A program made the position numbers and the translations under genes. The notes beneath the pieces are model-generated. The model ran no database searches. It saw nothing but the letters and a program-made list of their open reading frames with translations, and was not told where the DNA came from. DNA of 38,652 nt from the IMG/VR virus record IMGVR_UViG_2695420676_000011. The stretch is one strand, 5' to 3'. Positions within the stretch are counted from its first letter, which is position 1. Every line of letters begins with the position of its first letter. The stretch comes from a virus. Lineage: Duplodnaviria; Heunggongvirae; Uroviricota; Caudoviricetes. Shown here in pieces: positions 1,382-37,204 of this stretch.

Positions 1382-3067
1382 GTGAATATAAACGTCGCCG
1401 AATTGTTAAATGGGAATTACATTCTGTTATTATTTGTGGTCCTCGCGCTTGGGCTATGTCTCGGAAAGTTACGACTTGGTTCGATCCAACTGGGTAATTC
1501 CATTGGCGTTTTAGTCGTATCGCTGTTATTAGGCCAACAACATTTCAGCATTAACACCGATGCGCTTAATCTTGGCTTTATGCTGTTTATTTTCTGCGTC
1601 GGGGTCGAAGCCGGACCGAACTTTTTTTCCATTTTTTTTCGCGATGGGAAAAATTACCTAATGTTAGCACTGGTGATGGTTGGCAGTGCGCTGGTGATCG
1701 CCTTAGGGTTAGGTAAGCTGTTTGGCTGGGATATTGGCCTGACGGCCGGTATGTTAGCAGGCTCTATGACGTCGACACCGGTGCTGGTCGGTGCTGGCGA
1801 TACACTGCGTCATTTCGGCATGGAAAGCAGGCAGCTCTCACTGGCACTGGATAATCTGAGCCTCGGGTATGCCTTAACCTATTTAATCGGTCTGGTGAGT
1901 TTGATTGTTGGTGCGCGTTACTTGCCGAAATTGCAGCATCAGGACTTACAGACCAGCGCCCAGCAAATCGCCCGCGAACGTGGCCTGGACACTGATGCCA
2001 ACCGTAAGGTTTATTTACCGGTGATCCGCGCCTATCGCGTCGGCCCGGAGCTGGTGGCCTGGACCGACGGCAAAAATCTGCGTGAACTGGGTATTTATCG
2101 ACAAACCGGCTGCTACATTGAACGTATTCGACGTAACGGGATTCTGGCAAATCCAGACGGTGATGCCGTGCTACAAATGGGCGATGAAATAGCGTTGGTA
2201 GGCTATCCCGACGCCCATGCCCGACTCGATCCCAGCTTCCGTAACGGTAAAGAAGTTTTCGATCGTGACCTTCTCGACATGCGTATCGTCACTGAAGAAG
2301 TGGTCGTTAAAAACCATAACGCTGTAGGTAAACGTCTCGCACAACTGAAGTTGACCGATCACGGTTGCTTCCTTAACCGCGTCATTCGTAGCCAGATTGA
2401 GATGCCGATAGATGACAACGTCGTGCTTAACAAAGGTGACGTTTTACAAGTCAGCGGCGATGCCCGCCGCGTAAAAACCATCGCCGATCGCATCGGCTTT
2501 ATCTCGATTCACAGCCAGGTCACTGACCTGCTGGCATTCTGCGCCTTCTTTGTTATTGGGCTGATGATCGGGATGATCACCTTCCAGTTCAGCACATTCA
2601 GTTTCGGCATGGGGAACGCTGCCGGGTTGTTATTCGCCGGAATTATGCTGGGCTTTATGCGTGCTAACCACCCGACCTTCGGTTACATTCCGCAAGGTGC
2701 ATTAAGCATGGTGAAAGAGTTCGGCTTGATGGTGTTTATGGCAGGCGTTGGTCTGAGCGCCGGTAGCGGTATTAATAACGGCCTGGGCGCGATTGGCGGT
2801 CAGATGTTGATTGCCGGATTAATTGTCAGTCTTGTGCCCGTGGTTATCTGTTTCTTGTTCGGTGCTTATGTATTGCGAATGAACCGCGCACTATTGTTCG
2901 GCGCAATGATGGGCGCACGCACCTGCGCGCCGGCAATGGAGATCATCAGTGATACAGCTCGCAGTAACATCCCTGCGCTGGGCTATGCGGGCACCTACGC
3001 AATCGCCAACGTCCTGCTGACGCTGGCAGGGACAATCATCGTCATGGTATGGCCAGGATTAGGATAA
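1382..3067 (+). CDS. ybjL: Putative AAE-family transporter YbjL (two TrkA-C/RCK_C domains)
   Basis: 561-aa ORF with GTG start and N- and C-terminal membrane domains around a soluble core; length and N-terminus match YbjL. Confidence 0.85.
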
Positions 3068-3179
3068 AACTGAAGTTGCCCTGAAAATGAAATTTTTTTG
3101 CACAACCGCAGAACTTTTCCGCAGGGCATCAGTCTTAATTAGTGCCACTGCTTTTCTTTGATGTCCCCATTTTGTGGAG

Positions 3180-3222
3180 CCCATCAACCCCGCCATTTCG
3201 GTTCAAGGTTGATGGGTTTTTT
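3180..3222 (+). terminator. Rho-independent terminator about 110 bp downstream of ybjL
   Basis: Perfect 10-bp stem cccatcaacc / ggttgatggg with a 17-nt loop, followed by tttttt. Confidence 0.65.
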
Positions 3223-3302
3223 GTTGCCTGAAATTTATGCCGTTTAAAATCATGACGTTAGAAGCACTGTTTTTTAACGATGGCGACAAAATGGCGGCAG
3301 CG

Positions 3303-3521
3303 TCAAAGAGAGAGCGCCACCTGTCCTGATTTCATTGGATGCGGCTGAACCGGATTTGACTCTTTTGGCGTTGCAATCGAACGAACAAAAGTTTCATGGG
3401 TTACAAAAGTATGGCTGCAGTTAATATTCTGGCACTGGTTGTAACGCTCTTTGGTCAATGAAGATACCTGAAAACTGCTGCGAGTATGGGCGGCACTTCC
3501 ACACAGTGGGCAAATCATCAT
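3303..3521 (-). CDS. ogr: Late transcription activator Ogr/Delta family (C4 zinc finger)
   Basis: MMICPLCGSAAHTRSS...CQNINCSHTF zinc-finger pattern typical of P2 Ogr; start moved to an internal Met with a GGGAGAA RBS. Confidence 0.8.
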   Translation of the reverse strand: MMICPLCGSAAHTRSSFQVSSLTKERYNQCQNINCSHTFVTHETFVRSIATPKESNPVQPHPMKSGQVALSL

Positions 3522-3611
3522 TTTTCGAGTTCTCCCCATTTTTGCTAAATTCACAATAATGATACCGCATTATTCCATTTTGCAAACTTAAAAGTTCTCC
3601 ATTGCGAAGAA

Positions 3612-4712
3612 TCATTCCATTTCGAAATCATCAATCCTCACTTCAAGCTCCAGACTGGTTGTAAAACCGTTATCGGGGCTGACGGTATGCGTCAGAGTCG
3701 TAATGGTCCATTCCGCATCATCTATCGGTTGTTTAAAGCCACTAACTTTCACTGGCATTTCCGTGTAAAGATCTGCCCGCCCTTCCGCCAGTTGTAGCGA
3801 GAATGACGCAACGCCGCGTTGCAGGCGTTCCCACTGCATTTTCGCTGCCCGTTCAGCGTTGCTCCGGTTGGCATAAGTGCGATTAAGTACCAGCACGTTT
3901 TCATCCGTACCCACCAGGTAATCGCCCTGCTTCGCTTCCGGCTCTTTCTTCTGCTTCTTAGTTCTGCGCTTACGCTTCACCGTGGTGCTTTCTTTCTTCG
4001 CAGGTTCGCGGGTATGCAACCAGCTGGCAATTACGCCCGTGTAGGCTCCGCGATCTGCCAGGGTAAAGCGGTGACTGTCGCCGTCCTTGCGTGTGATAGT
4101 GATCACTGGCAGTGGTTTACCAGTGGCGCTTTTGCCCTGCCCCTGCCGGATGAATAACAGATTGCCATTTTTCACCGACGCGATGGCACCGTACTGTCGC
4201 GCCAGCCGCATCAGAAAACTACCGTCACTCTCATTAGTCTGGTCTATATGCTCCACGAGCTTATCCGACAGGTCTTTACCCAGTACCATCTTCAGCTTGT
4301 GCCGCGCGGCTATCTCCTTCACCACTTCCCCAATGGTGGTCTTGTGCCACGATTTTTCACGGCGGGTATTCAGCGTTTCCCGAAAATCAGCACTTCGCGC
4401 CCGGATAGTCAGGCGGTCCGGTGCGCCAGTGTGTTCAATCTCGTCCACCGTGAATGCCCCTTTCGGGAAAAGCGGCTGCCCCTTCCAGCCCAGCGCCAGC
4501 GTAATGACCGCACCACGGCGCGGCAGCACGATTTTCCCGTCGGCATCGTCCAGCTCCAGATCAAGCTGGTCTGCTTCAAAGCCCCGATTGTCCGTCAGAG
4601 TCAGACTCATCAGGCGGTTATCCAGCACAGTGGTGATATCCCTACCCTCAATACTGATGCTGAATGCCGGAGTTTTGTTGCTTTTGTTAAGCAGTTCAGA
4701 GCTGAAATTCAC
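3612..4712 (-). CDS. D: Tail protein gpD (late control gene D)
   Basis: 366-aa product in the P2 gpD position with recalled gpD-like sequence; 4-bp overlap with upstream U. Confidence 0.85.
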   Translation of the reverse strand: MNFSSELLNKSNKTPAFSISIEGRDITTVLDNRLMSLTLTDNRGFEADQLDLELDDADGKIVLPRRGAVITLALGWKGQPLFPKGAFTVDEIEHTGAPDRLTIRARSADFRETLNTRREKSWHKTTIGEVVKEIAARHKLKMVLGKDLSDKLVEHIDQTNESDGSFLMRLARQYGAIASVKNGNLLFIRQGQGKSATGKPLPVITITRKDGDSHRFTLADRGAYTGVIASWLHTREPAKKESTTVKRKRRTKKQKKEPEAKQGDYLVGTDENVLVLNRTYANRSNAERAAKMQWERLQRGVASFSLQLAEGRADLYTEMPVKVSGFKQPIDDAEWTITTLTHTVSPDNGFTTSLELEVRIDDFEME

Positions 4713-6753: not shown

Positions 6754-8268
6754 TCACTGCGCAGAAAGTGAATCCTTGTTAATGTCGGATTCTTTCTGCA
6801 TGGAGCCGAGCGCATCATTGCCCGCTGTCAGTTTTAACTGACGCTGCAGTTCCGGCAGGTTGTTTGCCAGTTTCGCCGCGTCATCGCCAAACTCTTTACC
6901 AAACAACATAGTCATGGCAGACAGGCGCTTGTCCTGCGGCAGCGCGTTTACCTTCTCCAGCACGCGCTGGATGGTTCCCATCGCATCCTTCGTCATCTGC
7001 TTTTCAATCACTTCAGGATTGAGTTTCAGCAGATTCATCCCTTCAAAGAAACTCTTGCTTTGCATGGTGGCAATGGACAATTCACGCACCATCGCGTTTG
7101 CTGCACTGGCTGCAACCTCTGGCGCAGCGCCCAGTGTCAGGAAGGTGGAACCCAGCGCCGCCGCTTTACGATAATCCAGACGGTCAGCCACACCGCCCAG
7201 ACGTTGCATCACATCAATGATGTCTGCCCCTTTCGACATGGCGTTATCATCCAGATAGTTCAGCGCATCACCGAGCTGTTCAATATTGCGGGTGGGGATT
7301 TTGTAGAGCTGGGCGATTTTCCCCAGACTTTCTGACAGTTCATCCGCTGGCAGCTCAAAGGCTGTTGCCGCCTTTGCTGCCGTACTGGCGAAGGCCAGCA
7401 GGTCACGTTTCTGATCTTCCCAGCTGTCGTCAGGGTTTGCGACGTTCATGCGCGCACCACCTTCAACCAGTGCAGCGAAGTCCACCGCACCGTTTTCCAT
7501 CGGCAACTGTTCGCTGGCAGCCTTGATGGCATCCTGCATTTCATAAAAACGTGCAGTGCGGTTGCCATTATCGTCACGCAGACCATTGACCTGCTTTGCC
7601 ACACCTTTCATGGCATCTTCCATGCTGGTATAGCTTTTTACTGCCGCCATCACTGGCGCACCCATTGCCAGCCCTGCAGCCGTGGTGGTGGCTCCGGCAC
7701 CTGCAATACGATCACGCACCTCCAGCGAACGGGCATAACTGGCACGCGCTGCATTCATCCTGCGCTGAGCTTCCCCCAGTCGCTTCAGCCGCGCCTCCTG
7801 TTTCGAAAGTTCCTGGTTATAACGTGATGTTTCACGGGCTAAACGGGCAGTTGCTCCCGCATCGTCTTTCGCAGAAATTCCCGCCCGGTACAGTTCAGCA
7901 CGCACAAGCGCCGTCTGCTGCTGCAGCTTTTTCTGGCGTTCTTCCAGGCGCTGAACAGCCAGCCGTTGACGGCCCAGAGCAACAACCTGACGTTGCGAAG
8001 GCGGCCCCATCGCTCCCAGTTCCTGACTGAGCAAATTTGCACGCTGGCGGGCATAGTTCAGCCTGTCGCCTAATTTCTGATTTTCTGCCTGCAGCTTTCG
8101 GAAGCTGTCCAGACTGCTCCCGGCCTGATCAAGCTGCTTTATTGCATCGCGGGATTTTTTGACAGCAGCAGCCAGTTCTCTTGAACTGGCCTGCGCAGAT
8201 CGAAATGGACGGGTGAGCTTGTCAACCGCATTAAGAATGACCTGCAGACGCAGGTTGTTATCACTCAT
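6754..8268 (-). CDS. T: Tail tape measure protein gpT, N-terminal segment (ends at in-frame TGA)
   Basis: 504-aa coiled-coil-like product starting MSDNNLRLQ; its ATG overlaps the E' stop as in P2. Confidence 0.75.
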   Translation of the reverse strand: MSDNNLRLQVILNAVDKLTRPFRSAQASSRELAAAVKKSRDAIKQLDQAGSSLDSFRKLQAENQKLGDRLNYARQRANLLSQELGAMGPPSQRQVVALGRQRLAVQRLEERQKKLQQQTALVRAELYRAGISAKDDAGATARLARETSRYNQELSKQEARLKRLGEAQRRMNAARASYARSLEVRDRIAGAGATTTAAGLAMGAPVMAAVKSYTSMEDAMKGVAKQVNGLRDDNGNRTARFYEMQDAIKAASEQLPMENGAVDFAALVEGGARMNVANPDDSWEDQKRDLLAFASTAAKAATAFELPADELSESLGKIAQLYKIPTRNIEQLGDALNYLDDNAMSKGADIIDVMQRLGGVADRLDYRKAAALGSTFLTLGAAPEVAASAANAMVRELSIATMQSKSFFEGMNLLKLNPEVIEKQMTKDAMGTIQRVLEKVNALPQDKRLSAMTMLFGKEFGDDAAKLANNLPELQRQLKLTAGNDALGSMQKESDINKDSLSAQ

Positions 8269-9276: not shown

Positions 9277-10449
9277 TTACGCGCTGACCTGGCTGGCGAA
9301 ATTCACCAGGTACTGATCGGTGATGCGCTGACGCAGCATCAGGTTTTCAAGTGGCGGCACTGGCGTGTAGTCGTAGTCGATGGTGAGTTTTCCGGCTTTC
9401 AGCGTGTCTTTGTCGTTCACCGACTCATCCAGCCAGCAATCACCACCAATGAGATAGCCCTGACTGACCAGGCTGCGCATTTTGGCGCGGATACCTTCGA
9501 TAATGTCGCGGGCCAGCGACGGGTTAAGCGGTTTATCCACCGCCCACATGTGTGCTTCTGCCATCGTGTCCATCAGCACCTGCGCCGTGCGGGTGTAGTT
9601 TTCGAAGGCAAAGAGCGGGTCATCACTCAGGCAGCGGGAACCCCAGAAGCGGAAACCGTCTTTACGCACAAGCGTGGTGACGTCGTTCTGGTTCAGCAGA
9701 CCTGCATCGGTTGCCGGGTCCTGCAGATCCCAGAACACATCTGCAGAAATTCCGGTGACACCGTTCACGCCCACGTTGGACAGGCTTTTGTGCCATCCGG
9801 TCTGCTCGTCAATTTTGGCGCGCAGACCAAGCGCACGGGCGGTGGCATATGCCGTTGCTTCGGCATTCAGCACCGTGTCCCAACCAGTAAAGTCAGGCCA
9901 GATCAGCATCCCTTCGCGCTGGCTGAAGTTTTCGCGGTAAGTGATCGCCTCCTGCACTGTCTTGCAGCCATACGCTGACAGGTAAGCAAATCCACGCAGG
10001 CGTTGCGCCACGCTCAGCAACTCAGTAGCTACCGCCTTGGTGTCGTGGCCTGGCACGCCGAGAATGCGCGGTTTAACGCCGAGCTGTGACTGGGCAGATA
10101 ACAGGGCTTTCATACCTGTTTTTTTACCTTCAGCAGTCACTGCGCCGATGATATTGGTCGTGGTTTCGTCTTCCGTTTCACCCTGCGGCACACGCACAAC
10201 AATGGTCACGGGTTTTGCCTGGTCAGCGATGGCATCCAGCGAACGGGCCAGAGTACCTGACTCACCCGCTTTACCGCTGGCAGTCAGCACATCAGTGATC
10301 AGCACGGGTTTATTAAGAGGAAACATTTTTGCATCGGCATCATCGCCCGTGCAGACCATACCCACGATGGCGGTGCTCACCGTGGTAATAGATCGGGTGC
10401 CTTCGTTGACTTCAACAACGCGCACCCCGTGGTGGTAATCCTGAGCCAT
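9277..10449 (-). CDS. FI: Contractile tail sheath protein gpFI
   Basis: 390-aa product starting [19 protein letters not shown], resembling P2 FI. Confidence 0.9.
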
Positions 10450-10525: not shown

Positions 10526-10543
10526 TGTGTCGTTATTCACACA
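10526..10543. promoter_or_regulatory. Candidate Ogr-dependent late promoter element (TGT-N12-ACA) upstream of FI
   Basis: TGTgtcgttattcacACA dyad about 80-95 bp upstream of the FI start codon. Confidence 0.5.
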
Positions 10544-10591
10544 AAATAACGGTATTTGTCTGCTTGCAGGGATAATCAACATAATGCTGAT

Positions 10592-11164
10592 TCAGGGGGA
10601 TTCATTGATCTTATTTGCCGGAAATTTTCTATAAATGGTAGAAACGCCTACATCAAAAATCAGTGCAATACGCTGTATTGATTCTCCGGCCTCGAGTAAA
10701 CGCCCAATCTGTGCCCACTGTTCGGTGGTCAACTTAGGACGGCGTCCACCTACTCTGCCTTTGGCACGAGCTGCAGCCAGCCCTGCCCTGGTACGTTCAA
10801 CTATCAGTTCGCGTTCCATTTCAGCCAGGGCACCCATGACATGAAAAAAGAAACGGCCCATTGGGGTACTGGTATCAATACTGTCAGTCAGGCTTCTGAA
10901 ATTCACACCACGCTGGCGCAACTCTTCTATCAGCGTAACAAGATGCCGCATACTGCGCCCCAACCTGTCCAGCTTCCAGACAACCAGCGTGTCTCCTGCC
11001 GATAGTGTCCTGAGTAGTTTTTTCAGCCCCGGTCTGTCGGACTTAGTGCCACTGATTTTGTCCTCAAAAATCCGCTCACATCCCGCGCAGTTCAGTGCAT
11101 TACGTTGCAAATCGGTGTTCTGGTCATTTGTTGACACGCGTACATAGCCAATAAGCATGATCAT
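10592..11164 (-). CDS. Serine DNA invertase (Hin/Gin/Cin/Pin family)
   Basis: 190-aa product with the IGYVRVSTNDQ catalytic-serine N-terminus and a C-terminal HTH. Confidence 0.9.
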   Translation of the reverse strand: MIMLIGYVRVSTNDQNTDLQRNALNCAGCERIFEDKISGTKSDRPGLKKLLRTLSAGDTLVVWKLDRLGRSMRHLVTLIEELRQRGVNFRSLTDSIDTSTPMGRFFFHVMGALAEMERELIVERTRAGLAAARAKGRVGGRRPKLTTEQWAQIGRLLEAGESIQRIALIFDVGVSTIYRKFPANKINESP

Positions 11165-11185
11165 CCCCCTGAATAAAAACCGGAG

Positions 11186-11521
11186 ATGATGCCAGTTAGC
11201 TGGTACCTCTGCATTTTCTTAAACGTTGGTTTTGGAGAAGGTGCTAACTGGGTTATGTTACCTGGAGGAATGATAATTCAGCGTGTTTATCTTGGATTTC
11301 CTATTGGCACCAATGCAAGACACATAACTTTCCCCCGGTCGTTTACAACAACGAACTATTCCATCTCAATTAACTGGAATGATATCGGTACTGTAACAAC
11401 TGAAACACAATCACCAGCAAATGTGGCGGTTGTTCATCAAACAAAATCATTAACAGGGGCCAGCATCTGGCAGGCAGGTCCCGGGGGATTTAATGTGGAC
11501 ATTATAGCGGTGGGGTATTGA
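11186..11521 (+). CDS. Alternative (silent) tail-fibre C-terminal cassette
   Basis: Plus-strand ORF running out of the left crossover site (FGEGANW junction), lacking its own N-terminus. Confidence 0.55.
11216..11244. repeat. Invertase crossover site (hix/gix-like), left
   Basis: ttcttaaacgttggttttggagaaggtgc; the 17-nt core ggttttggagaaggtgc recurs inverted at 12955-12971 with one mismatch. Confidence 0.6.
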
Positions 11522-11522
11522 T

Positions 11523-11951
11523 ATGTACGTATGGAGCGCTAAATCAAATGGCTTTTTCCCCATATCGGAGAAAGAAAAATTTGAGGCATCAGGTCTGTGG
11601 CCTGATGATGGTGTAATAGTCAGTGAGGAAGAACATAAAAAGTTATTTATGGATATTCCACCAGGAAAACAGATTGGAACACTGAATGGAAAACCAGCAC
11701 TGATAGATATTCCTCAGCCGACCAAAAAGGAATTAATAGCTATTGCTGAAGTTAAAAAATCCCAATTACGGGAAAAAGCTGACAGTGAAATATCCTGGCG
11801 TCAGGATGCTGTTGATGCTGATATCGCAACTGATGAAGAAACTTCAACTCTCACCGAATGGAAGAAATACCGTGTGCTGCTGATGCGTGTTGATACTTCA
11901 ACAGCACCCGATATTGAATGGCCTACGCCTCCGGCAGTTCAGGCCAGATGA
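11523..11951 (+). CDS. Alternative tail fibre assembly chaperone (Tfa/gpG family), inverted cassette
   Basis: 142-aa ORF immediately after the silent fibre cassette; C-terminus ([14 protein letters not shown]) parallels that of the minus-strand Tfa. Confidence 0.6.
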
Positions 11952-12516
11952 CATCCGGCGCGGTGCTGGTATCTGTTGCCGTCACCGCGTCAATGTAATC
12001 CAGCACGGTGTTAAGTCGGGTTGTTTCTGCCTGAGTCAGTTTCCGTCCGGCCTGTAATTTCAGCTGAATCAGACTAATGGAAGCCATTACTGCATCAATC
12101 AGTGACTGGCGCTGTGCTTCTGCTGCTTCTACTGCGGCGTTATGCTGTGCCTCAGTATCTGTCACCCATTTCTCACCATCCCATTTATCATATGGCGTTA
12201 ACGGTGAAAGCGTGACATAACCGTTTTTGATGGCACCGATATAATCCACTGTAACAGCTGCGCCATTTTCTGTTGAGTAAACAGTCTCATTGCGATGGTC
12301 TTCTTCATGGCTCCATCCCTTACCCGTAAATACTGCCACTTTCCCCGGAATGTTTTCGCCCGGGTCAATACCAGTGGAACAGGCGGGCATACTTACGCCA
12401 GTATTAATATATTCATCAGACCAGCCCGTATACTCAGATGTTTCAGCATCATAATAAAAACAACGCATATCGCCCGGCACTGTGGCCAGCCCATTTTCAT
12501 CAAAAACAGGTTTCAT
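11923..12516 (-). CDS. G: Tail fibre assembly chaperone (gpG/Tfa family), expressed cassette
   Basis: 197-aa ORF directly downstream of the tail-fibre gene, ending [15 protein letters not shown]. Confidence 0.75.
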
Positions 12517-13541
12517 TATTTAGCCCTCACCAGAAAGTTAAATGCAATATTTCGCGGTCTGACAGCAACAAAATTCACACCATCACCCACAGAGTTACTG
12601 GTGAAATTAAATCGTGAAAATCCTGGCTGATTTCCGGCGATGCCATCATGAAAGTTAATTGCGTGTCCCGCACCTCCGCCTATATTCCCGGCAAACTGAG
12701 AAAAGTTTGTAGCTTCCTGCCAGCTTAATAATTCGCGACCACCGTCTGCACCTCGCCCGTCATCCCAGATACGAATGAAATCACCGCGGGCTTCAGGTAA
12801 TACCAGCGAAGGAAATACTTTCGCCAGCACAGGATAATCAGTGGCAGAGAATTTCGCGCCGTTGAACTTCAAAAACACCATACTGGACCAGCTGTCGATT
12901 ACAGTATTTGGCATTGCAGCGGACGGCCAGAAGAACGGAACGCCAATAGCTGGAGCACCTTCTCCCAAACCAAGGTATGTGAGAAGACCAGCTACATCCT
13001 TTCCACTCAAATTGGTAAGCGTATTGTCCAGCGGTTGTTTACCTGCCAGCGCATTAAGCATTGTCGTGGCAAAGTTCGGATCATTCCCCAGTGCCGCCGC
13101 CAGTTCGTTCAGTGTATCCAGTGCAGCAGGTGCAGAACCCACCATTCCTGCAATCGCCGATTTCACAAAAGCCGTAGTGGCAATCTGTGTATTGTTGACC
13201 GACTGCGCCGCCGTGGGGGCTGTTGGCGTTCCGGTGAGTGCCGGACTCGACAACGGTGCTTTTAGTGCCAGCGCATTGTTAATGGTGGTACTGAAATTCG
13301 GATCATTGTTAATGGCTGCGGCTATTTCTTTCAGCGTGTCCAGCGTGGCTGGCGCACCATTAATAAGGGCCGTCAGTGCCGCCTGTACAAACGCAGTGGT
13401 CGCAACCTGCGTGGTATTATTCCCCGCCGCTGGCGTTGGCGCTTTGGGGGTTCCGGTAAATGTCGGGCTGGCTTTTGGCGCGTACTGTGAATGCGGGTCC
13501 GGTGCGGCAAGATGTTTTGCCATCTGATCATCCGCGTACAC
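12516..13541 (-). CDS. H: Tail fibre protein gpH, C-terminal segment (frameshifted relative to N-terminal segment)
   Basis: 341-aa repeat-rich ORF with no proper start, abutting 13544..14020 in a different frame. Confidence 0.7.
   Translation of the reverse strand: MYADDQMAKHLAAPDPHSQYAPKASPTFTGTPKAPTPAAGNNTTQVATTAFVQAALTALINGAPATLDTLKEIAAAINNDPNFSTTINNALALKAPLSSPALTGTPTAPTAAQSVNNTQIATTAFVKSAIAGMVGSAPAALDTLNELAAALGNDPNFATTMLNALAGKQPLDNTLTNLSGKDVAGLLTYLGLGEGAPAIGVPFFWPSAAMPNTVIDSWSSMVFLKFNGAKFSATDYPVLAKVFPSLVLPEARGDFIRIWDDGRGADGGRELLSWQEATNFSQFAGNIGGGAGHAINFHDGIAGNQPGFSRFNFTSNSVGDGVNFVAVRPRNIAFNFLVRAK
12955..12985. repeat. Invertase crossover site, right (inside the tail-fibre gene)
   Basis: Reverse complement gives ggtttgggagaaggtgc; encodes the GLGEGA junction of the tail fibre. 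Confidence 0.6.
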
Positions 13542-13543
13542 CT

Positions 13544-14020
13544 TCAGCTCCAGTGCCTTGTCTCCACATACTTGCGGGTTGCCAGCACTACAGCAGGGTC
13601 GATTTTCAGGGTGATATTGTCCGTGCTGCTGGTAATCAGCACCATGCGCACGGTCTGAGTGCGCCCGCTACCTTCAGCCAGTTGCGGCTTATAGCTTTCC
13701 GGGCAGTTGCCCACGGCAATCAATGCCCCGGACTCATCAAACAAGCCCACTTCACGTATCCACCAACCGCCCTCGTTTTCAGGGATCACCTGTTCGGCAA
13801 TAATCTGGCTGCTGTTCTGCGGGTCGATATAAAGCATATTCAGCGCAGCCCGGCGTTTCTCATTTACCAGTGCCGTCTGCTTTGCGTCCGGCGTTGGCAA
13901 TACTCCACCGCCATCGCCCACCGCCATATGGGTAATTTTTAGCGGCACACCGAGCGCGGCGGCGCTGGCAAGTTTCGCCGCGCCAATATCCGTCAGCAGG
14001 GTATAAAATTTTGTGCTCAT
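13544..14020 (-). CDS. H: Tail fibre protein gpH, N-terminal segment (truncated by apparent 1-bp deletion)
   Basis: 158-aa product starting MSTKFYTLLTDIGAAKLA, resembling the P2 gpH N-terminus; ends ...YVETRHWS* where P2 has YVDDK. Confidence 0.7.
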   Translation of the reverse strand: MSTKFYTLLTDIGAAKLASAAALGVPLKITHMAVGDGGGVLPTPDAKQTALVNEKRRAALNMLYIDPQNSSQIIAEQVIPENEGGWWIREVGLFDESGALIAVGNCPESYKPQLAEGSGRTQTVRMVLITSSTDNITLKIDPAVVLATRKYVETRHWS

Positions 14021-25279: not shown

Positions 25280-26020
25280 TTACTCAATAGGTTCAAACTC
25301 ATCCTGAGGAATCAGCGTCGATTGACAGGCTTGGCTTAGTACTCCTGATAATTTACATAATAACCGATAGTTATGAGGAGCATCATCGCTAATCTTTTCG
25401 ACCGTTAAAGTGATTGATTTTGGATCATCCAATAACATCTTCTTGATATCATTACTTAAATACCTAGGGCAGTAACCAACGATTTCAGCTGGTTTATCTG
25501 CACGAACGACAACAGCATCCCCATCGTATTCATTTTGAAGATCCAAGCAAAGACGCAAAATTTGCCCCGGTTTCAATTCAGATACACGAGCATTAGCTAA
25601 GCTATTTAAGTAACCAAGTCCATGTAAGAAGAAAAAATGCTCAAAGTTACCATCAGAATCAACATCAATTTTTTTGAAAATCTGCAGCTGATCAGTGCTT
25701 CGTAAGCCTCCCGAGCGAGCAAGAATATCGATAGGATTTACCTTATCTTCTTCAAATCCAAGCCATTTAATGAAACTCGGATACTCTGGACGTCTCGGTG
25801 ATAAAAGGCGATTTTTAAAAAGAGGAAACAATTCTTCCGAAACATAAGTTTCACGAACATCACTCATGCCGCTAAACTTTGTAAATTTAGTAGATTTGAG
25901 AGCACCTTTGGTATACCTGAAAACATACCCCGATTTGCGCTCTTGCAAGTTACCAACAACATGCCAGTCTCTGGTATCTGGTGCCTGCCATGCGACGTAA
26001 ACGGAGTTTGTATTAGTCAT
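25280..26020 (-). CDS. HIRAN-domain protein, putative partner of the HipA-like kinase
   Basis: 246-aa ORF overlapping the upstream kinase gene by 4 bp; C-terminal ~100 aa resemble a HIRAN domain (ILRLCLDLQNEYDGDAVVVRAD...EIVGYCPRYLSNDIKKML); AT-rich. Confidence 0.55.
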   Translation of the reverse strand: MTNTNSVYVAWQAPDTRDWHVVGNLQERKSGYVFRYTKGALKSTKFTKFSGMSDVRETYVSEELFPLFKNRLLSPRRPEYPSFIKWLGFEEDKVNPIDILARSGGLRSTDQLQIFKKIDVDSDGNFEHFFFLHGLGYLNSLANARVSELKPGQILRLCLDLQNEYDGDAVVVRADKPAEIVGYCPRYLSNDIKKMLLDDPKSITLTVEKISDDAPHNYRLLCKLSGVLSQACQSTLIPQDEFEPIE

Positions 26021-26931
26021 TCTAGTAACCTTCTGCGATTTTCCATTACCATTAACGTTGCAAATCTACGTGCGCTGTCGGATATACACGATGAAGGCAC
26101 TTGGTTAAACACATCTGTAATGGAATCTTCTGTTAAAACGCTCAACTTACCTAACCAATGGTCGCGAGCGGCAACTCTCCCTTCAACTGCATGTTGAAAT
26201 GCTTCAACGGTCAGCAAGGGCTTTTTATCAGTTTTTGCTTTGAATAGCTCAGAGCGAGCTTTTCTTACAAAACATGGGATTTGTCGATTTTTATCTTTAG
26301 TATTAAGCCGTTCGTTACGCTCATCATCTAACATCTCCCTTCCTAAACTAGCGGCATGATCGTATGTTGGACACAAAAACTGCTCACCAGTTTCATTGTT
26401 AAGCATGATCGCCCAATTTTCATGATGGCGATCTTGATTACTCACAAGTGCATCGAGCATCAAATATCCACAAAATACATCTGCTGCATTTAGCCCGGTT
26501 AGATCATATACACTCGGAGGAGGCTTGATAGATTCCCTATCTAAACAACCCAATACCCTTGTGACAGTGTGTTCTCTGACCCTTACCGGCTTTTCCCCGG
26601 CTTGTAAAGGCCCAGGATAATCGAATGTCGAACTGTGAAGCACTTCATTTCCCATTACCATCCGGAAACCAGATGGAATGATATTCTGAGTCACCACACC
26701 GAATCGACCATTGTATCGCGCCAAATCATAGCTAGCATGTGGAATGTTAAGCAAATGACATAACTCAGCAGCACACTTTTCAGACCAATGCTCGCCAGTA
26801 CCTGGCCTAGAGTACTTAAACAACTGCAAATTTACAGTGTCATCGGAGAAATAGAACCAAAACTTCTCTTTGGTTCCTAACTGTTCAAGATCGTTAGCTA
26901 CGGGGCTAAGCTCTACCAATTGGTATGGCAT
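26017..26931 (-). CDS. HipA-like serine/threonine kinase (kinase core only)
   Basis: 304-aa product with a HipA-type catalytic loop VSNQDRHHENWAI and downstream CPTYDHAASLG; AT-rich; first gene of a two-gene operon. Confidence 0.6.
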   Translation of the reverse strand: MPYQLVELSPVANDLEQLGTKEKFWFYFSDDTVNLQLFKYSRPGTGEHWSEKCAAELCHLLNIPHASYDLARYNGRFGVVTQNIIPSGFRMVMGNEVLHSSTFDYPGPLQAGEKPVRVREHTVTRVLGCLDRESIKPPPSVYDLTGLNAADVFCGYLMLDALVSNQDRHHENWAIMLNNETGEQFLCPTYDHAASLGREMLDDERNERLNTKDKNRQIPCFVRKARSELFKAKTDKKPLLTVEAFQHAVEGRVAARDHWLGKLSVLTEDSITDVFNQVPSSCISDSARRFATLMVMENRRRLLE

Positions 26932-27102: not shown

Positions 27103-27526
27103 TGCCCGCTTTATGTAGTGGTTTTCATGCACCTGCATGACATAAGCAAAAGCACGCCAGTTCTGGCTGACTTCAGCAAAAACGATCCTCAAACGATCAT
27201 GCGATCTCATGCGTCATAGTCATGCGCTGCCAAGGGAAGCGTAAATCCGTATCTGAATGACTGCTGAAAAGCGAATCATACGGGTTTACAAAGATGAAAG
27301 TTCGCTGTGAGCGAGAAGCGAACCTTGCAACTTTGTTGGCACAGTTTTAACACCAATTTTTTGAGGATAGCTAGAAAACTTGTGGCATAAAGGATCAGTT
27401 TCCCGATCGAACTTTTTATCAAGAAGGGCTCATAGCAATCGCCAGAAGAAGTGATGTTAAAGTATTGAGCTCGGCGTTAAGATTAAATAAATTACAGACT
27501 AATCCAATGTTTTGTGGAAGGATAAG

Positions 27527-28570
27527 ATGGCAGTCAAGCGCGCATACTACGGTAACGATAGTGACCGAGACTACTTAGAGCGGATATTTCAGTCAGCTAA
27601 CATTAACTTTCTCATCGGATCAGGTGCATCCCTCCCAGCGATTAAAGTACTGGGGACAATCGAAACGGATCTTCAGCAGCTTATTAATGATGAACAGGAA
27701 GATGAATACTTAAGGATGGCAGCTGACTTTTTGTCAGATGTTTGGCTACCTCATGAATGCATGTTGAAGCGCGGCTACGGCACCCCCTTCGCACCTCAGG
27801 TGATCACCGATTTGGAATGTACCCGTGCAAATTATGATGCATTTATGTCTTCACTGGAAAAGATACTGACCCGCCGCCGAACTGGCCTACTTCCGAGGCG
27901 TATTAACGTTTTTACAACTAATTATGATTTATTCATCGAAGAAGCTGCCACACGTAATAACAATATTCTTTTTAATGATGGATTCAATAGAAGAGCAAGT
28001 ATTTTGGGAGATGCGGAATTTGATGCGGGTAGCTTTAATCATTCTGTAAGTGCAACCGGAAATCTGTATAATTATAAAGTTGAGCTTCCTACTGTTAACC
28101 TTATAAAACTTCATGGTTCGCTCTCTTGGCAGCATTCTAAAGGGAAAATCATTTATCGTATTGCAGATATTAAGCCGCTTGACTTTCCCACCCTAGCCGA
28201 AATGAAAGGATGGGTACTTGCTCATGCACTTATTCTTCCACGTAAGGAGAAGTTTAAAGAGACTCTACTACAGAACGTTTATTATGATTTACTGAGAACC
28301 TATTCCAACGAGCTTGATAAAGAAGCAACTTTACTAATTGTCTTTGGGTTCTCGTTTGCTGATGAGCACATTGAAACGATAACTAAAAAAGCCCTGCGCA
28401 ACGCCACCCTGAAGCTACTGATCTTTGCTTTCGATGAGGCCAGTGTTAACGGCTTTATGGAGAAATTTCGGGATTACTCAAACGTAGAGATTATTTATCG
28501 GCCGGGAAGAAATGTTGATTTTCCGGTAATGAATAACATTATCACGTGCTATCTGGGAGGCTCGAGATGA
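27527..28570 (+). CDS. SIR2-family NADase of a SIR2-HerA anti-phage system
   Basis: SIR2-like motifs NFLIGSGAS, TTNYD and KLHGS; ATG at 27527 with RBS (ORF track start 27512 is TTG); stop overlaps the HerA start (ATGA). Confidence 0.8.
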   Translation: MAVKRAYYGNDSDRDYLERIFQSANINFLIGSGASLPAIKVLGTIETDLQQLINDEQEDEYLRMAADFLSDVWLPHECMLKRGYGTPFAPQVITDLECTRANYDAFMSSLEKILTRRRTGLLPRRINVFTTNYDLFIEEAATRNNNILFNDGFNRRASILGDAEFDAGSFNHSVSATGNLYNYKVELPTVNLIKLHGSLSWQHSKGKIIYRIADIKPLDFPTLAEMKGWVLAHALILPRKEKFKETLLQNVYYDLLRTYSNELDKEATLLIVFGFSFADEHIETITKKALRNATLKLLIFAFDEASVNGFMEKFRDYSNVEIIYRPGRNVDFPVMNNIITCYLGGSR

Positions 28571-30426
28571 GCAGGCATTTTACTGAAGAGGAAGCGGTGC
28601 TCCGTATAGGCGAAGTCTGTGAGGTTTCTGGACGCGCTGTGACAATTTTGGTCGATAAAAACAAAAATCTCAGTGACTTGTTTTATCAGGGAAAAGTTCT
28701 AAGAAATGTATCAGTGGGTAGCTTCATTGAGATCAAAAAAGGTTTCATGAGCCTGATCGGCAAGGTTGAAGCGGAACGAATCATTGAGGAAAAACATCTC
28801 GCTGGGAGCGGCAGTGATGCCTGGCGATATCGGCGATACCTGACCTCTACTCTTACGGGTTACATTGATCGTACTGGTTGCTTCATTGGTGGTTCGCGTG
28901 AACTACCTCTCATCGGCAATGAAGTCTTCGTGGTAACTGAAGAGATGATACAAACGGTTCATCAGATAGCTAATGCAGACGAAACTGTAATGAGGTTTAC
29001 TCGTACAGATCTTGAAGATATTGAAATTGCACTACCAATCAATGGTCTTATTAATTCCCACATTGCCATTTTCGGTAATACAGGCAGCGGAAAGTCAAAT
29101 ACCCTAGCCGCGCTATACAAAGCAGGTATTGCCCAAGTTAAACATATTCTCGGCAACCACTTTAGTGAAAGATGCAAATTTATTCTATTCGACTTTAATG
29201 GAGAATATACTGCCCCACGCTGTATTACTGACGAGAAGACGGTTTATAATCTCAACACGCACCATGCAAATGGTGACAAACTTCCTCTACCCAGAGAGGT
29301 TCTACTTGAGCATGATATGCTCTCAGTTCTAACCGATGCAACAGACAAAACACAGAAACCTTTCCTGAAGAGAGTTCTTGAGTTTCGCAAGAAAGTGATG
29401 ACTGCTGATAATCCTCTTGAGTTTATGCGCAATATCCTGAAGAAAAAAGTCAGACAAAATCTCTTTAGTAGCGACAAACCCAAATGCGATACTATAAATC
29501 AGTTTCTTAGCCCAATTTTCAAAGATGACCCAGAACTTATATCTGATCTTGAGTATCATTCAACTGCATATAAATGGAAATTGAGGGGTGGTAGTATTTT
29601 CAATACAGAAGCTGATACTGAGCGCTCCTATCTATTCAGTCTTGCAAGCAATTTTTTATTTAAAACTGATATGATTGAAGAACTGTTGGACTTTATGTAC
29701 TTACAGTTAATACAGGAATATTTATCTAACAAGTCTAACCCTGAACATATTTCACCAGTTATAAATAGAATGAGTGCTAACCGTAAAGATATAGCCAAAA
29801 TATTTGATACTTCCGGACAGTCTGACTTTTGGGGTGAACATAATTTCACGGTTGTGAATCTAAATATGGTTAATATAACCATGAAAAAAACGCTTCCTCT
29901 TTTGATAGCCAAGTGGGCTTACAATATGAAGAAAATGTCTACAGAGAAATCTACACTGCACATCATTATAGATGAAGCCCACAATATTTTGTCTAATACT
30001 TCTTTTCGGGAAACGGAAAGTTGGAGAGATTATCGTCTGGAAACTTTTGAGGAAATCATAAAGGAGGGGAGAAAATTTGGAGTTTTTATCACAATTTCCA
30101 GTCAACGCCCTAATGATATATCGTCGACAATCATATCCCAAGCACACAATTATTTTATTCATCGCCTTATTAATCAGAATGATCTGTACGCAATTGAAAA
30201 ATCAGTATCATATATAGATCGACTGACTGAAGAGTCGATTCCAACGCTATCTACAGGAACCTGTATTTTTAGTGGTATCGTCTGCCCCATGCCGCTCAAA
30301 TTAAGGGTAGCTGAACTTCCAATTGAAGAAAAACCTAAGAGTAATACTATTTCCTTCAACGATTTAATACCTGAGAGGCTGGGAGAGGATGACCAGAGCG
30401 ACTACGTAATAACCAGCCCTCACTAA
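28567..30426 (+). CDS. HerA-like (FtsK/HerA superfamily) ATPase of a SIR2-HerA anti-phage system
   Basis: Walker A IAIFGNTGSGKSNT and Walker B LHIIIDEAHN; GGGAGG RBS; translationally coupled to the SIR2 gene. Confidence 0.85.
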   Translation: MSRHFTEEEAVLRIGEVCEVSGRAVTILVDKNKNLSDLFYQGKVLRNVSVGSFIEIKKGFMSLIGKVEAERIIEEKHLAGSGSDAWRYRRYLTSTLTGYIDRTGCFIGGSRELPLIGNEVFVVTEEMIQTVHQIANADETVMRFTRTDLEDIEIALPINGLINSHIAIFGNTGSGKSNTLAALYKAGIAQVKHILGNHFSERCKFILFDFNGEYTAPRCITDEKTVYNLNTHHANGDKLPLPREVLLEHDMLSVLTDATDKTQKPFLKRVLEFRKKVMTADNPLEFMRNILKKKVRQNLFSSDKPKCDTINQFLSPIFKDDPELISDLEYHSTAYKWKLRGGSIFNTEADTERSYLFSLASNFLFKTDMIEELLDFMYLQLIQEYLSNKSNPEHISPVINRMSANRKDIAKIFDTSGQSDFWGEHNFTVVNLNMVNITMKKTLPLLIAKWAYNMKKMSTEKSTLHIIIDEAHNILSNTSFRETESWRDYRLETFEEIIKEGRKFGVFITISSQRPNDISSTIISQAHNYFIHRLINQNDLYAIEKSVSYIDRLTEESIPTLSTGTCIFSGIVCPMPLKLRVAELPIEEKPKSNTISFNDLIPERLGEDDQSDYVITSPH

Positions 30427-35711: not shown

Positions 35712-36221
35712 TCACAGCAAACCGAATGAAGCACCGAGGCCAGTCACGGTATCAACTGCACTCGCCATCGCAGGATTAGCCTGTAAACGGGCCTGCAATG
35801 AAACAGCAGCCAGCGCCATCAGTCGTGTTACAGAGTTAATGCTGCTGATAGCATCACGACGACCGGCACTAGTTTTTACATCACCAGATACCGCACCTGC
35901 TGCAACACGCCCGATCTCTGCAGTTGCGCTCATGACGTAATGCGGCAGTTTCTCTTTTGCTACCTCATTAATCGGTACACATGGCAGACAATGAATCTGT
36001 GCCAGAAAACCATCTACCAACGTTGAATCTTCAGTCAGATCGGTAAGCAGCCAGATTTCTGGTGCGGTTAATAAATGAGGTTGAGCTGGGTTCAGCTTGT
36101 TCCGCAGAATCTGCACATTCATGCCCGCACGTTCTGCCAGTTGCACCAGATTGTGGCGCAGTGTGAATGCACGACAGGCTTCATCAAAATGTGGATGTTT
36201 GGAAACTTGGTAATCAAACAT
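35712..36221 (-). CDS. cII: CII-like lysogeny establishment activator (phage 186 type)
   Basis: Product [19 protein letters not shown]... resembling 186 CII over its length; start set at the ATG matching the 186 N-terminus (ORF track start 36230 is TTG). Confidence 0.8.
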
Positions 36222-36285
36222 GGTTTTCAACTCCGAACTTATCGCAAAATCGAACTCAGCGTCTTATTGCGAAAATAGACGTCTA

Positions 36286-36489
36286 TTAAGCAGACAAAGC
36301 ATCAACAGTCAGAGCAGCCATGTTAATCATTACCTTTTCACGTTTTTTGTCTTTACGAAGACGATGACGAGGTAGTCGGCCATCAGCCAACATGTCGTTA
36401 ATCGTATCAATAGAAAGGCCAGTCAGTTCGCTATAACGTTCGATTGTGACATGTGGTGTATTCAGAGTAATTGAAATGTTAGGTGTCAT
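36286..36489 (-). CDS. apl: Apl/Cox-like excisionase and switch regulator
   Basis: 67-aa basic HTH-like protein, first gene of the rightward lytic operon, divergent from the repressor. Confidence 0.65.
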
Positions 36490-36634
36490 AAGGCAACATT
36501 CCTTCTAGATATGGCTTGTGGCGAGCCGTTGTTTGTCGTGATTAGTAGTGAAGGCTCCAAAAGAACACTTCTGGTTCAACTTTAAGATCGCTTTTGGAAT
36601 CTGTCAACGAATTTTGGATTTCTTTGGAGGACTT

Positions 36635-37204
36635 GTGGATTTCAATAGCGGCGGTAAGAAAGCCATAGAACGTTTAGTTGAAGCATATGGGTTCGGTACC
36701 CGTCAGGCTCTATGTGATCATTTAGGTGTTTCTAAGAGCACCATGGCAACGCGCTATATGCGTGATATTTTTCCAGCAGATTGGGTAATCCAGTGCGCCC
36801 TTGAAACGGGCACCTCGCTTAATTGGCTAACAACAGGGCATGGTTCAAAGCAAGCATCAGCAAATACAAATACTATAGAAGTAGAAAAATATTTATTGTC
36901 TGATGGAGCATTGCAGAAAGACGGTTTTTATATTTTTGATAAGGGATTTCTACCCTCTACGTTTAAAAAACCTTTTGTCATCACAGATAACAATTCTGAA
37001 TTTATTTGTGATAAAGAATTTGATGATATACGTGATGGTAAATGGGTAATAAGTATTGATGGCGAAATAACTATCCGTGACATTACTCGTTTACCCGGTG
37101 GAAGAATCTTCGTCGAGGGTGGAAACAGAGCCTTCGAATGCAAGATAGAAGACATTGAAATAATTGGTAAAATTATAAGTTTAACAGTCAAGTATGTTAA
37201 ATAG
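36635..37204 (+). CDS. cI: CI-like immunity repressor (phage 186 type)
   Basis: Product resembles 186 CI (EAYGF...CALETG...); start placed at in-frame GTG 36635 with GGAGG RBS rather than 36548. Confidence 0.7.
   Translation: MDFNSGGKKAIERLVEAYGFGTRQALCDHLGVSKSTMATRYMRDIFPADWVIQCALETGTSLNWLTTGHGSKQASANTNTIEVEKYLLSDGALQKDGFYIFDKGFLPSTFKKPFVITDNNSEFICDKEFDDIRDGKWVISIDGEITIRDITRLPGGRIFVEGGNRAFECKIEDIEIIGKIISLTVKYVK

Follow-up and report, generated by a model that had tools for sequence, protein, structure and literature searches.

A DNA inversion switch of the Din family (Gin/Cin/Pin/Hin-type), which exchanges the tip of a tail fibre together with its assembly chaperone by the site-specific mechanism proposed below, very probably resides in a P2-like prophage next to ybjL in E. 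coli. It was identified in the window, i.e. the whole 38.6-kb stretch of DNA analysed, and its parts, its geometry, the in-frame fibre fusion in both orientations and the actual inversion in close relatives were all directly seen. The evidence on orientation comes from the close relatives, while the window's own locus is known from one sequence. Although structurally intact, the switch in this copy has probably lost its effect on the host range of a viable phage, given a frameshift in the fibre gene and a nonsense codon in the tape-measure gene.

Two convergent fibre modules occupy a 1,748-bp invertible segment

The elements of the locus, in the order of their coordinates, are as follows.

10526–10543: TGT-N12-ACA dyad upstream of the sheath gene FI, where P2 annotates the activator-binding site for the late promoter pF
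10592–11158, minus strand: DNA invertase gene, 188 aa, beginning MLIGYVRVS; an in-frame ATG also lies at 11164 (ORF 10592–11164)
11073–11140, minus strand: putative recombinational enhancer (Fis-binding 'sis' element) at nt 19–86 of the invertase gene, in its 5′ end, assigned by position
11214–11239: invertase-proximal 26-bp crossover site, TTTTCTTAAACG-TT-GGTTTTGGAGAA, crossover dinucleotide 11226–11227
11226–12973: invertible segment, 1,748 bp with both core dinucleotides included
11228–11521, plus strand: silent alternative fibre C-terminus Sv′, 97 aa, FGEGANW…AVGY, Pfam Gp53-like_C (5.5e-6)
11523–11951, plus strand: tail-fibre assembly chaperone U′ of the silent module, 142 aa, Pfam Caudo_TAP (7.4e-34), PHROG 188 (3.9e-55)
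11923–12516, minus strand: tail-fibre assembly chaperone U of the expressed orientation, 197 aa, Pfam Caudo_TAP (3.5e-27), PHROG 105 (5.4e-84)
12516–12971, minus strand: fibre C-terminus Sv, now joined to the constant part, 151 aa, LGEGAPAIGVPFFWP…LVRAK
12960–12985: fibre-internal 26-bp crossover site, TTCTCCCAAACC-AA-GGTATGTGAGAA, crossover dinucleotide 12972–12973
12974–14020, minus strand: fibre constant part Sc (P2 gene-H-type), Pfam Phage_tail_fib N-terminal domain (5.9e-66)

A Gin/Hin-family invertase adjoining an invertible segment of about 1.7 kb had been predicted by the sequence-only reading, and a 188-aa serine invertase and a segment of 1,748 bp (11226–12973) were indeed found. The segment comprises two convergent modules, each made of a fibre C-terminus and a chaperone gene, and the 3′-ends of U and U′ overlap by 29 bp. 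In the present orientation the whole fibre gene spans 12516–14020 on the minus strand. Its C-terminus Sv matched PHROG 3100 ('tail fiber protein', 3e-52) and PHROG 523 ('tail collar fiber protein', 5.9e-42) and shares 41% identity with e14 StfE, and the chaperone U shares 63% with e14 TfaE.

The predicted plus-strand cassette with a chaperone of its own was confirmed as well, with a Gp53-like_C tip (11228–11521) followed by a Caudo_TAP protein (11523–11951). Sv′ lacks its own start at the junction, the start given for its ORF (11186) being mechanical, and was assigned by PHROG to tail fibre / virion structural proteins; U′ matched PDB 5yvq_B (Mu 'Tail fiber assembly protein U', 1.4e-6) and is 51% identical to a Mu-type chaperone. 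Sv′ was found fused to the fibre constant part in five E. coli genomes at a coverage of at least 80%, and in at least 14 further genomes among the matches listed (77%), and it adjoins the invertase in 82 genomes. A promoter scan detected no consensus sigma-70 promoter for Sv′-U′, which fits a silent cassette. A PDB search with the fibre (12516–13541) and the silent tip Sv′ yielded no solved structure matching either tip domain; the two tips presumably bind different receptors.

Two inverted crossover sites bound the segment

The 17-nt repeat that had been read from the letters was retrieved with its one mismatch, as GGTTTTGGAGAAGGTGC at 11228–11244 and GGTTTGGGAGAAGGTGC in the reverse complement of 12955–12971. 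It extends to a 32-nt inverted repeat (11214–11245/12954–12985) that is 81% complementary, with arms 1,708 nt apart, and is the longest inverted repeat of the region. The crossover dinucleotides abut the 17-mer, in which the inner half-site is joined to 5 nt of coding sequence common to both copies; the functional unit is best described as two 26-bp sites. These are inverted relative to each other, and both cores are AA when read from the TTCTCC half.

The Din-type site pattern matched only twice in the 38.6-kb window, compared with a mean of 0.10 matches in shuffled sequences, none of 100 shuffles having two or more. Scanning the whole window with the 20-position consensus likewise returned only the same two sites at ≥14/20, the left site as a whole agreeing at 18 of the 20 specified positions. 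A third crossover site, which would give a shufflon-like, four-state layout as in the second EPEC P2-like locus, was therefore rejected.

That a flip exchanges the fibre C-terminus and its chaperone, as had been proposed, was reproduced in silico: the inverted fibre stays in frame, passing from …LLTYLG|LGEGA… to …LLTYLG|FGEGANW…, so that the GLGEGA and FGEGANW junctions noticed earlier are in frame in either orientation.

In the mechanism we propose, the small serine invertase would bind both inverted 26-bp sites, presumably assisted by a Fis-bound enhancer within the 5′ end of its own gene. Both sites would be cut at the central AA/TT dinucleotide and the strands rotated and religated, flipping the 1,748 bp. 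The fibre promoter and the first ∼350 codons lie outside the segment. Whichever module faces the constant part would be translated as the fibre tip and its chaperone co-transcribed, the other module remaining silent. With one module expressed per orientation, lysogens would therefore release two kinds of particles differing in receptor specificity.

The invertase belongs to the Gin/Cin/Pin/Hin group and may carry an enhancer in its 5′ end

By homology, the enzyme is classified as a small serine recombinase of the Gin/Cin/Pin/Hin group. It comprises the Pfam Resolvase (2.9e-53) and HTH_7 (6.4e-16) domains and falls into PHROG 125 ('DNA invertase', 1.4e-100). The Gin structures 3uj3/4m6f matched its residues 1–184 with E = 1e-91, aligning Ser9 (YVRVS) with the catalytic serine, and its score was 308 bits against Gin versus 122 bits against gamma-delta resolvase. 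Among the classical invertases, PinE is closest to it (83% identity), followed by Cin (76%) and Gin (74%), and 186 of its 188 residues are identical to those of the enzyme from strain NRZ14408.

Residue 161, located in the DNA-binding (helix-turn-helix) domain, is Ile. Ten compared invertases all have Arg there, namely PinE, Cin, Gin, the enzyme of EPEC and six out of seven close homologues; Ile161 recurs only in L001, whose locus has the orientation of the window. An invertase with Ile161 would presumably still be active. The promoter scan returned no consensus sigma-70 promoter for the invertase either, a result that says little about this gene.

The putative enhancer (11073–11140) corresponds, in a gap-free alignment with cin and gin, to the stretch annotated as 'putative enhancer' of cin in the P7 record, and it holds two G-N13-C 15-mers (gene nt 22–36 and 71–85) 49 bp apart. 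By its position, the stretch may act as an enhancer in the invertase 5′ end. A synonymous-site comparison of the window invertase, pinE, cin and gin counted 5 of 18 invariant codons in codons 7–29 and 9 of 78 in codons 30–138, a difference that lies in the direction expected for an enhancer and is not significant (p = 0.13).

A perfect inverted repeat of 12 nt at the two ends of the invertase ORF (10590–10601/11163–11174) was treated as a coincidence. By estimate, chance alone would produce about 0.3 repeats of this kind per 3.3 kb; the repeat is imperfect in two close relatives and absent at the EPEC, e14, P7 and Mu loci, and its arms were treated as a Shine-Dalgarno sequence on one side and the invertase's last codons on the other.

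Homologous segments are inverted in close relatives

Both orientations of the locus were found in homologues, even within one strain. Strain NRZ14408 has been sequenced twice (LT599825 and CP158426), and between flanks of 3,791 and 4,143 identical nt the two assemblies differ by a block of 1,807 nt that matches its own reverse complement with no mismatch. Similarly, the sister strains ZF34 and ZF31 differ by an inverted block of 2,272 nt, again with no mismatch, whose breakpoint is confined to a shared TTGGTTT that holds the left-site core. Measured core to core, the exactly inverted segments of the same-strain assemblies and of the sister strains are 1,807 and 2,286 bp, respectively. A further pair, CUVET23-CCU12 and WP8-S17-ESBL-05, has flanks of 99.8–99.9% identity around an inverted middle block of 1,814 nt; the right site of WP8-S17-ESBL-05, the genome in the opposite orientation, reads TTCTCCAAAACC-AA-GGTATGTGAGAA, which is exactly the hybrid to be expected from inner half-sites that move together with the segment.

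At a coverage of at least 80% of the whole locus, 10 genomes had the orientation of the window and 12 the flipped one, and a synthetic flipped junction made from the window found a natural match at 99.7% identity. The fusion is in frame in both orientations in the window (in silico) and in six relatives, in which the junction lies at the identical in-frame position, with full fibres of 447–618 aa across both orientations. The two outcomes that the sequence-only reading had named as refuting it are both contradicted by these homologues. The best match to the locus among RefSeq complete genomes was S1-CAM-01-A (99.4%), and for positions 1–25000 of the window, which cover the host flank and prophage late genes, the best RefSeq complete-genome match reached 97.9%.

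Alternatively, the switch could be frozen in the window strain, with an inactive or unexpressed invertase (e.g. through Arg161 → Ile) and only the present orientation in existence. In favour of this are the replacement of the Arg common to the ten invertases named above, the orientation of L001, which is that of the window and which belongs to the sole other Ile161 genome seen, and the outcome of the promoter scan for the invertase. We nevertheless consider it unlikely: the other 187 residues, catalytic domain included, are identical or nearly identical to those of enzymes from inverting prophages, and the cores of the two sites match. Moreover, sites of this type can be recombined in trans by a Din invertase that another prophage of the same cell encodes. 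The action of PinQ on e14 is an example of such inversion in trans (PMC12529663).

The switch sits in a P2-like prophage with two broken tail genes

Based on collinearity with the annotation of a 98% identical relative and with the P2 reference layout, the host of the switch is classed as a P2-like (Peduoviridae) prophage. Its late genes follow the P2 order, i.e. ogr, D, U, T, E/E+E′, FII, FI … H, I, J, W, V, S, R, the lysis genes, X, L, M, N, O, P and Q. The switch had been stated to be absent from P2 itself, and canonical P2 has fun(Z), with no invertase, between G and FI; in the P2 record the same slot holds fun(Z) and the activator-binding site for pF. The dyad at 10526–10543 has the form of an Ogr site, and as it lies at the position of the activator-binding site for P2 pF, the invertase and the spare cassette fill the slot between the fibre and F operons.

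Comparison of 32 genes (late genes, switch genes and three flanking host genes) showed 30 of them to be intact and 95–100% identical to those of relatives. The two exceptions are the fibre and tape-measure genes, structural genes that a functional phage needs intact. One nucleotide of the fibre gene is deleted between 13562 and 13563, at a point 590 nt upstream of the switch where five homologues read GTGGATGAC and the window reads GTGGAGAC; the N-terminal ORF consequently stops at 13544–13546 after 158 aa, whereas the constant part is intact in all five homologues. In the tape-measure gene, TGG is changed to the nonsense codon TGA at 6754–6756. The fibre deletion, the tape-measure nonsense codon and Ile161 had all been missed by the sequence-only reading. 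With these two lesions, the copy is not expected to yield a functional fibre or tail. The earlier label of a host-range switch thus holds for the design of the element but probably not for its present effect. Unless the lesions are sequencing errors, this is a tail-defective prophage carrying a structurally intact switch, much as the e14 P segment, and the lesions suggest an early stage of decay.

Should both lesions be errors of sequencing or assembly, the prophage would be fully functional and the switch would work on host range. The switch itself has no lesion and the 30 other compared genes are intact and closely related to those of relatives. This reading is nevertheless unlikely, as there are two independent lesions of different kinds, a substitution (TGG → TGA) and a deletion (GGATGA → GGAGA) that lies outside any homopolymer run and is shared by none of the five homologues.

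A takeover by the host, in which the invertase and both cassettes persist in a tail-defective prophage because the inversion product benefits the cell, appears much less probable still. The cell might conceivably profit by flipping the segments of other prophages in trans, or from a fibre-derived protein that blocks the adsorption of unrelated phages. The switch is intact in spite of two inactivating tail lesions, the expressed module is related to e14 StfE/TfaE (41% and 63%), and a truncated P2-like remnant in EPEC still inverts; a precedent has also been published, in that e14 StfE2, a fibre fragment obtained after PinQ-mediated inversion, is reported to block the adsorption of other phages (PMC12529663). 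Nevertheless, the lesions are few and may be recent, so selection need not be invoked, and the frameshift takes the natural translation start from both possible fusion products.

Finally, that the inverted repeat is a mere coding motif (…G(L/F)GEGA…) common to two fibre genes beside an unrelated recombinase, to which the overlap of the inner half-sites with coding sequence conserved among fibres lends some appeal, can practically be dismissed, since it is already contradicted by the exact inversions of relatives, which break within the 7-nt stretch holding the core, and by the one-base difference between inner half-sites that moves with the segment, and since the outer half of the left site (11214–11225) lies outside the fibre-tip coding sequence and still fits the Din consensus.

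The locus resembles the Mu, e14 and P1/P7 switches and known P2-like loci

The locus is an ordinary Gin/Cin/Pin-type DNA inversion switch for a fibre tip and its chaperone, and its likeness to the G segment of Mu, drawn earlier from the sequence, was upheld by the arrangement Sc-Sv-U, U′-Sv′ and an invertase reading away from the segment. The Mu G segment/Gin system shares the constant fibre part, Sv-U, the inverted U′-Sv′, an invertase reading away with its 5′ end beside a site, and 26-bp sites of one type; Gin is the 74% identical enzyme named above. In contrast, the window segment is 1.75 kb versus about 3 kb in Mu, its host element is a P2-like prophage, and its core is AA, compared with GA in the Mu-type phage Mu_3F6 (TTCCTGTAAACC-GA-GGTTTTAGATAA at the equivalent position); the fibre tips have no relation to Mu-type tips at the sensitivity used.

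Another known system is the e14 P segment of E. coli K-12, whose PinE is the closest classical invertase (83%), whose StfE/TfaE resemble the expressed module and whose convergent chaperone genes (tfaE and tfaP) overlap by 29 bp, as U and U′ do. The core of the e14 inverted repeat was published as AAACCTTGGTTTGGGAGAAGG, a sequence that the window's right site includes when it is reverse-complemented. Both switches lie in defective prophages, but e14 is a lambdoid remnant, whereas the P2-like prophage has nearly all its late genes intact, and the silent cassette is a short Gp53-like domain here and StfP in e14.

For the C segment of P1/P7, Cin is 76% identical to the window invertase, and the constant part of the window fibre adjoining the site shares 81% identity with P7 Sc. 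Annotated in the P7 record are cix sites, Sv, Sv′, U and U′, together with an enhancer at cin nt 19–86. However, cin of P7 reads towards the segment and cixL overlaps the cin 3′ end, whereas the 5′ end of the window invertase faces the segment, and the C segment of P1/P7 is about 4 kb.

Loci of the same element type and architecture, in the same slot between the fibre chaperone and the sheath gene, are known in P2-like prophages, i.e. those of EPEC E2348/69, Fels-2 (Fin) and phage 500465-1, with cassettes that vary between prophages. Inversion in the P2-like prophages of EPEC E2348/69 has been published, PCR validation being stated for the four-variant locus, and the simpler locus, at 2,977,580–2,979,467, was shown to be phase-variable (PMC4272514). 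This simpler EPEC locus has the gene order of the window and an invertase-proximal site one base off the window's, but its invertase is only about 75% identical (145/194 aligned positions); the second EPEC P2-like locus, with three repeats, can adopt four states, compared with two sites and two states in the window. Fin of Salmonella Fels-2 has been described (PMC7953296). At the DNA level, Escherichia phage 500465-1 is 98.6% identical across 61% of the locus; its invertase, annotated as 'DNA invertase', is 98.9% identical.

Implications

This type of switch is textbook for Mu, P1 and e14, and its flipping in P2-like prophages has already been published (EPEC E2348/69, Fels-2), so the locus adds one more copy of a known switch and beyond annotation matters little. 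For annotation, prophage assemblies may differ or be garbled at such loci purely from mixed culture, and in RefSeq a fibre gene that is intact is often split into annotated pseudogene fragments when the segment lies in one of its orientations. Host-range prediction for P2-like prophages must take in both fibre tips.

Organization of the switch region in the prophage

Around the switch, the minus strand carries most of the genes, which follow the P2 late-gene order, i.e. T, E/E+E′, the tube gene FII, the sheath gene FI (9277-10449), the switch region, the fibre gene H (12516-14020) and the baseplate genes I, J, W and V. The window starts with the host genes grxA, ybjM and ybjL, and its right end holds an integrase together with a CI/CII-type immunity region; the element is therefore a P2-like prophage that has integrated next to ybjL in E. 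coli. The slot between FI and H, the fun(Z) site in P2, is filled here by an invertase gene and a spare tip-chaperone module. In canonical P2, fun(Z) separates G from FI and an invertase is absent, which bears out the statement of the sequence-only reading that P2 itself is without the switch. A TGT-N12-ACA dyad is present upstream of FI (10526-10543), where the P2 record annotates the pF activator-binding site.

Features of the switch region (coordinates, strand, description)
10592-11158, minus, invertase gene (Resolvase + HTH_7), between FI and H
11214-11239, left crossover site, invertase-proximal, TTTTCTTAAACG-TT-GGTTTTGGAGAA
11228-11521, plus, Gp53-like fibre C-terminal domain, last 97 codons of its ORF (silent tip, Sv′)
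11523-11951, plus, Caudo_TAP chaperone of the silent module
11923-12516, minus, Caudo_TAP chaperone of the expressed module, 29-bp 3′-end overlap with the plus-strand chaperone
12516-12971, minus, last 151 codons of the fibre gene (expressed tip)
12960-12985, right crossover site, fibre-internal, TTCTCCCAAACC-AA-GGTATGTGAGAA

Elsewhere in the prophage, the immunity region (35712-37204) codes for a CII/CP76 regulator as well as a CI repressor (Phage_CI_repr + Phage_CI_C). We take both to resemble phage 186 immunity genes rather than P2 C/Cox, which gives the prophage a mosaic appearance, with late genes of the P2 type and early genes of the 186 type. Between the portal gene Q and the replication gene A, a slot presumably corresponding to the old/tin cargo region of P2, two anti-phage defence systems are found (27512-30426, plus; 25280-26931, minus); one of them is a pair of SIR2 (E = 6e-211) and HerA (E = 7e-267), and the other is the PADLOC candidate PDC-M03A/B, comprising a HipA-like and a HIRAN-domain protein.

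Two crossover sites define an in-frame exchange of fibre tip and chaperone

The longest inverted repeat in the region measures 32 nt (11214-11245 and 12954-12985) and includes the 17-mer pair with one mismatch that the sequence-only reading had reported, found exactly where it had been placed. Both copies can be read as 26-bp imperfect palindromes of the gix/cix/hix type, which are inversely oriented and share an identical non-palindromic core; at the equivalent place a Mu-type phage carries TTCCTGTAAACC-GA-GGTTTTAGATAA. A 19-nt pattern derived from the sites matched only these two positions in 38.6 kb (0.10 matches expected), and a 20-position consensus scan of the window detected no third crossover site, so the locus is a simple two-state switch.

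In silico inversion of the segment (11226-12973, 1,748 bp core to core) kept the fibre frame, namely that …DVAGLLTYLG, joined in the window to LGEGAPAIGVPFFWP… with a 151-aa tip, became joined to the start of the 97-aa Sv′ tip, and the chaperone downstream of the tip switched together with it. The same junction codon was found in six related loci, with full-length fibres of 447-618 aa in both orientations.

The invertase and its upstream region

The invertase aligned to the Gin crystal structures over residues 1-184 (E = 1e-91), with the catalytic serine in YVRVS, and showed identities of 83%, 76% and 74% to PinE of e14, Cin and Gin, respectively, 186/188 to the NRZ14408 invertase and 188/188 to RefSeq WP_000905030.1 of strain S1-CAM-01-A. 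Residue 161 in the DNA-binding domain is Ile in the window and S1-CAM-01-A, and Arg in Gin, Cin, PinE, the EPEC enzyme and six other close homologues. A stretch matching the putative cin enhancer of P7 (gene nt 19-86) is present at 11073-11140; conservation at its synonymous sites did not significantly exceed that of the rest of the invertase gene, so the enhancer is assigned by position and is putative.

The interval separating the left site from the start of the invertase gene contains a weak terminator-like hairpin with a T run (11178-11197, minus). It is overlapped by the motif ATGATGCCA (11186-11197), which is conserved at the corresponding position ahead of pinE and the EPEC invertase, the counterpart upstream of gin reading ATCATGCCA; motif and hairpin might represent a promoter for the invertase or an element insulating it from read-through of the late operon. 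In addition, a perfect 12-nt inverted repeat (10590-10601, ATTCAGGGGGAT; 11163-11174, ATCCCCCTGAAT) exactly flanks the invertase ORF. As two close relatives have only an imperfect copy and the EPEC, e14, P7 and Mu loci have none, this repeat is probably due to chance.

Both orientations occur in related genomes

As the window is a single sequence, relatives were examined for flipping. In a search of 5,426 complete E. coli genomes at a coverage of at least 80%, 10 carried the 3.65-kb locus in the window orientation and 12 its in silico flipped version. Two assemblies of the strain NRZ14408 (LT599825 versus CP158426) agree completely over flanks of 3,791 and 4,143 nt and differ in a 1,807-nt block, its sequence in one being the exact reverse complement of that in the other. 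The same kind of difference, over 2,272 nt, was seen between the sister isolates ZF34 and ZF31, the breakpoint being confined to the 7-nt TTGGTTT containing the core dinucleotide. For the window's own silent cassette, CUVET23-CCU12 and WP8-S17-ESBL-05 have 99.8-99.9% identical flanks and an inverted middle block, and the fibre-internal site of the flipped WP8-S17-ESBL-05 is TTCTCCAAAACC-AA-GGTATGTGAGAA, precisely the hybrid predicted for an exchange at the core in which the inner half-sites move along with the segment.

A 300-nt synthetic junction made from the window, Sv′ fused to Sc (the constant fibre part), was matched in nature at 99.7% identity. This fusion was found in 5 genomes at a coverage of at least 80% and, among the matches listed, in another 14 at 77%, whereas the silent cassette adjoins the invertase in 82 genomes; thus the silent position is the commoner one for Sv′. 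These results confirmed the observation of the sequence-only reading and supported its interpretation as an invertible tail-fibre switch.

In E. coli CUVET23-RF4, a single assembly matched both junction types (2884-4600 of the locus). Its segment aligned to that of a clonal sister isolate at 93.6% with 135 gaps in one orientation and 83.5% in the other, with flanks at 99.97%, and looks like a consensus from a culture of mixed orientations. Separately, the window-orientation fibre genes of three homologous loci (L001 5067-6572, L004 5156-6661 and L006 12734-14039) are each given in RefSeq as two ‘incomplete’ pseudogene fragments, one labelled ‘integrase’; their ORFs are nonetheless intact (501-507 aa), and the calls look like an annotation artefact from the variable C-terminus.

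Relationship to known inversion systems

The switch belongs to a well-known kind of system. Its gene order and invertase gene direction are those of the Mu G segment, whereas in P7 cin is directed towards the segment with cixL over its 3′ end. Its expressed module is related to StfE/TfaE of e14, its silent chaperone to the Mu type, and its constant part beside the site to P7 Sc. Inversion in P2-like prophages is already documented: EPEC E2348/69 has two phase-variable P2-type loci (Goldberg et al. 2014, PMC4272514), and Fels-2 of Salmonella has Fin (PMC7953296). The one EPEC locus compared has the same architecture as the window, an invertase-proximal site one base off and an invertase of about 75% identity, and the invertase of Escherichia phage 500465-1, annotated ‘DNA invertase’, is 98.9% identical to that of the window. 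Klebsiella pneumoniae phages and prophages (OM835953, OK4903xx, OK4904xx) matched ∼61% of the locus at ∼96% DNA identity, in the invertase, chaperones and fibre constant part, which indicates that the P2-like phages of Escherichia and Klebsiella have recently exchanged the module.

An intact switch beside disrupted tail genes

In H, five homologues read GTGGATGAC and the window reads GTGGAGAC, with a 1-nt deletion between 13562 and 13563 (minus strand, GGATGAC to GGAGAC). The missing base shifts the frame, so the N-terminal ORF ends after 158 aa (stop 13544-13546) and the remainder of H lies in another frame; since the deletion is 590 nt upstream of the switch, no full-length fibre results from either orientation. 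In the tape-measure gene T, an in-frame TGA (6754-6756, minus) replaces the TGG (Trp) of a 98% identical relative and divides the 1,025 codons into ORFs of 504 and 520. Compared with this relative, the other 30 genes, comprising late genes, switch genes and three flanking host genes, are intact. Sequencing errors are an unlikely cause of these lesions; the two are more likely real, as they differ in kind and neither falls within a homopolymer run.

An intact switch beside broken tail genes could also mean that the host has taken the switch over, as reported for PinQ/StfE2 (PMC12529663), which we regard as very improbable here. With the lesions more likely real, the switch is best regarded as a module that is still intact within a prophage whose tail became defective only recently; the P segment of e14 and the truncated remnant in EPEC, both of which still invert, are comparable cases.
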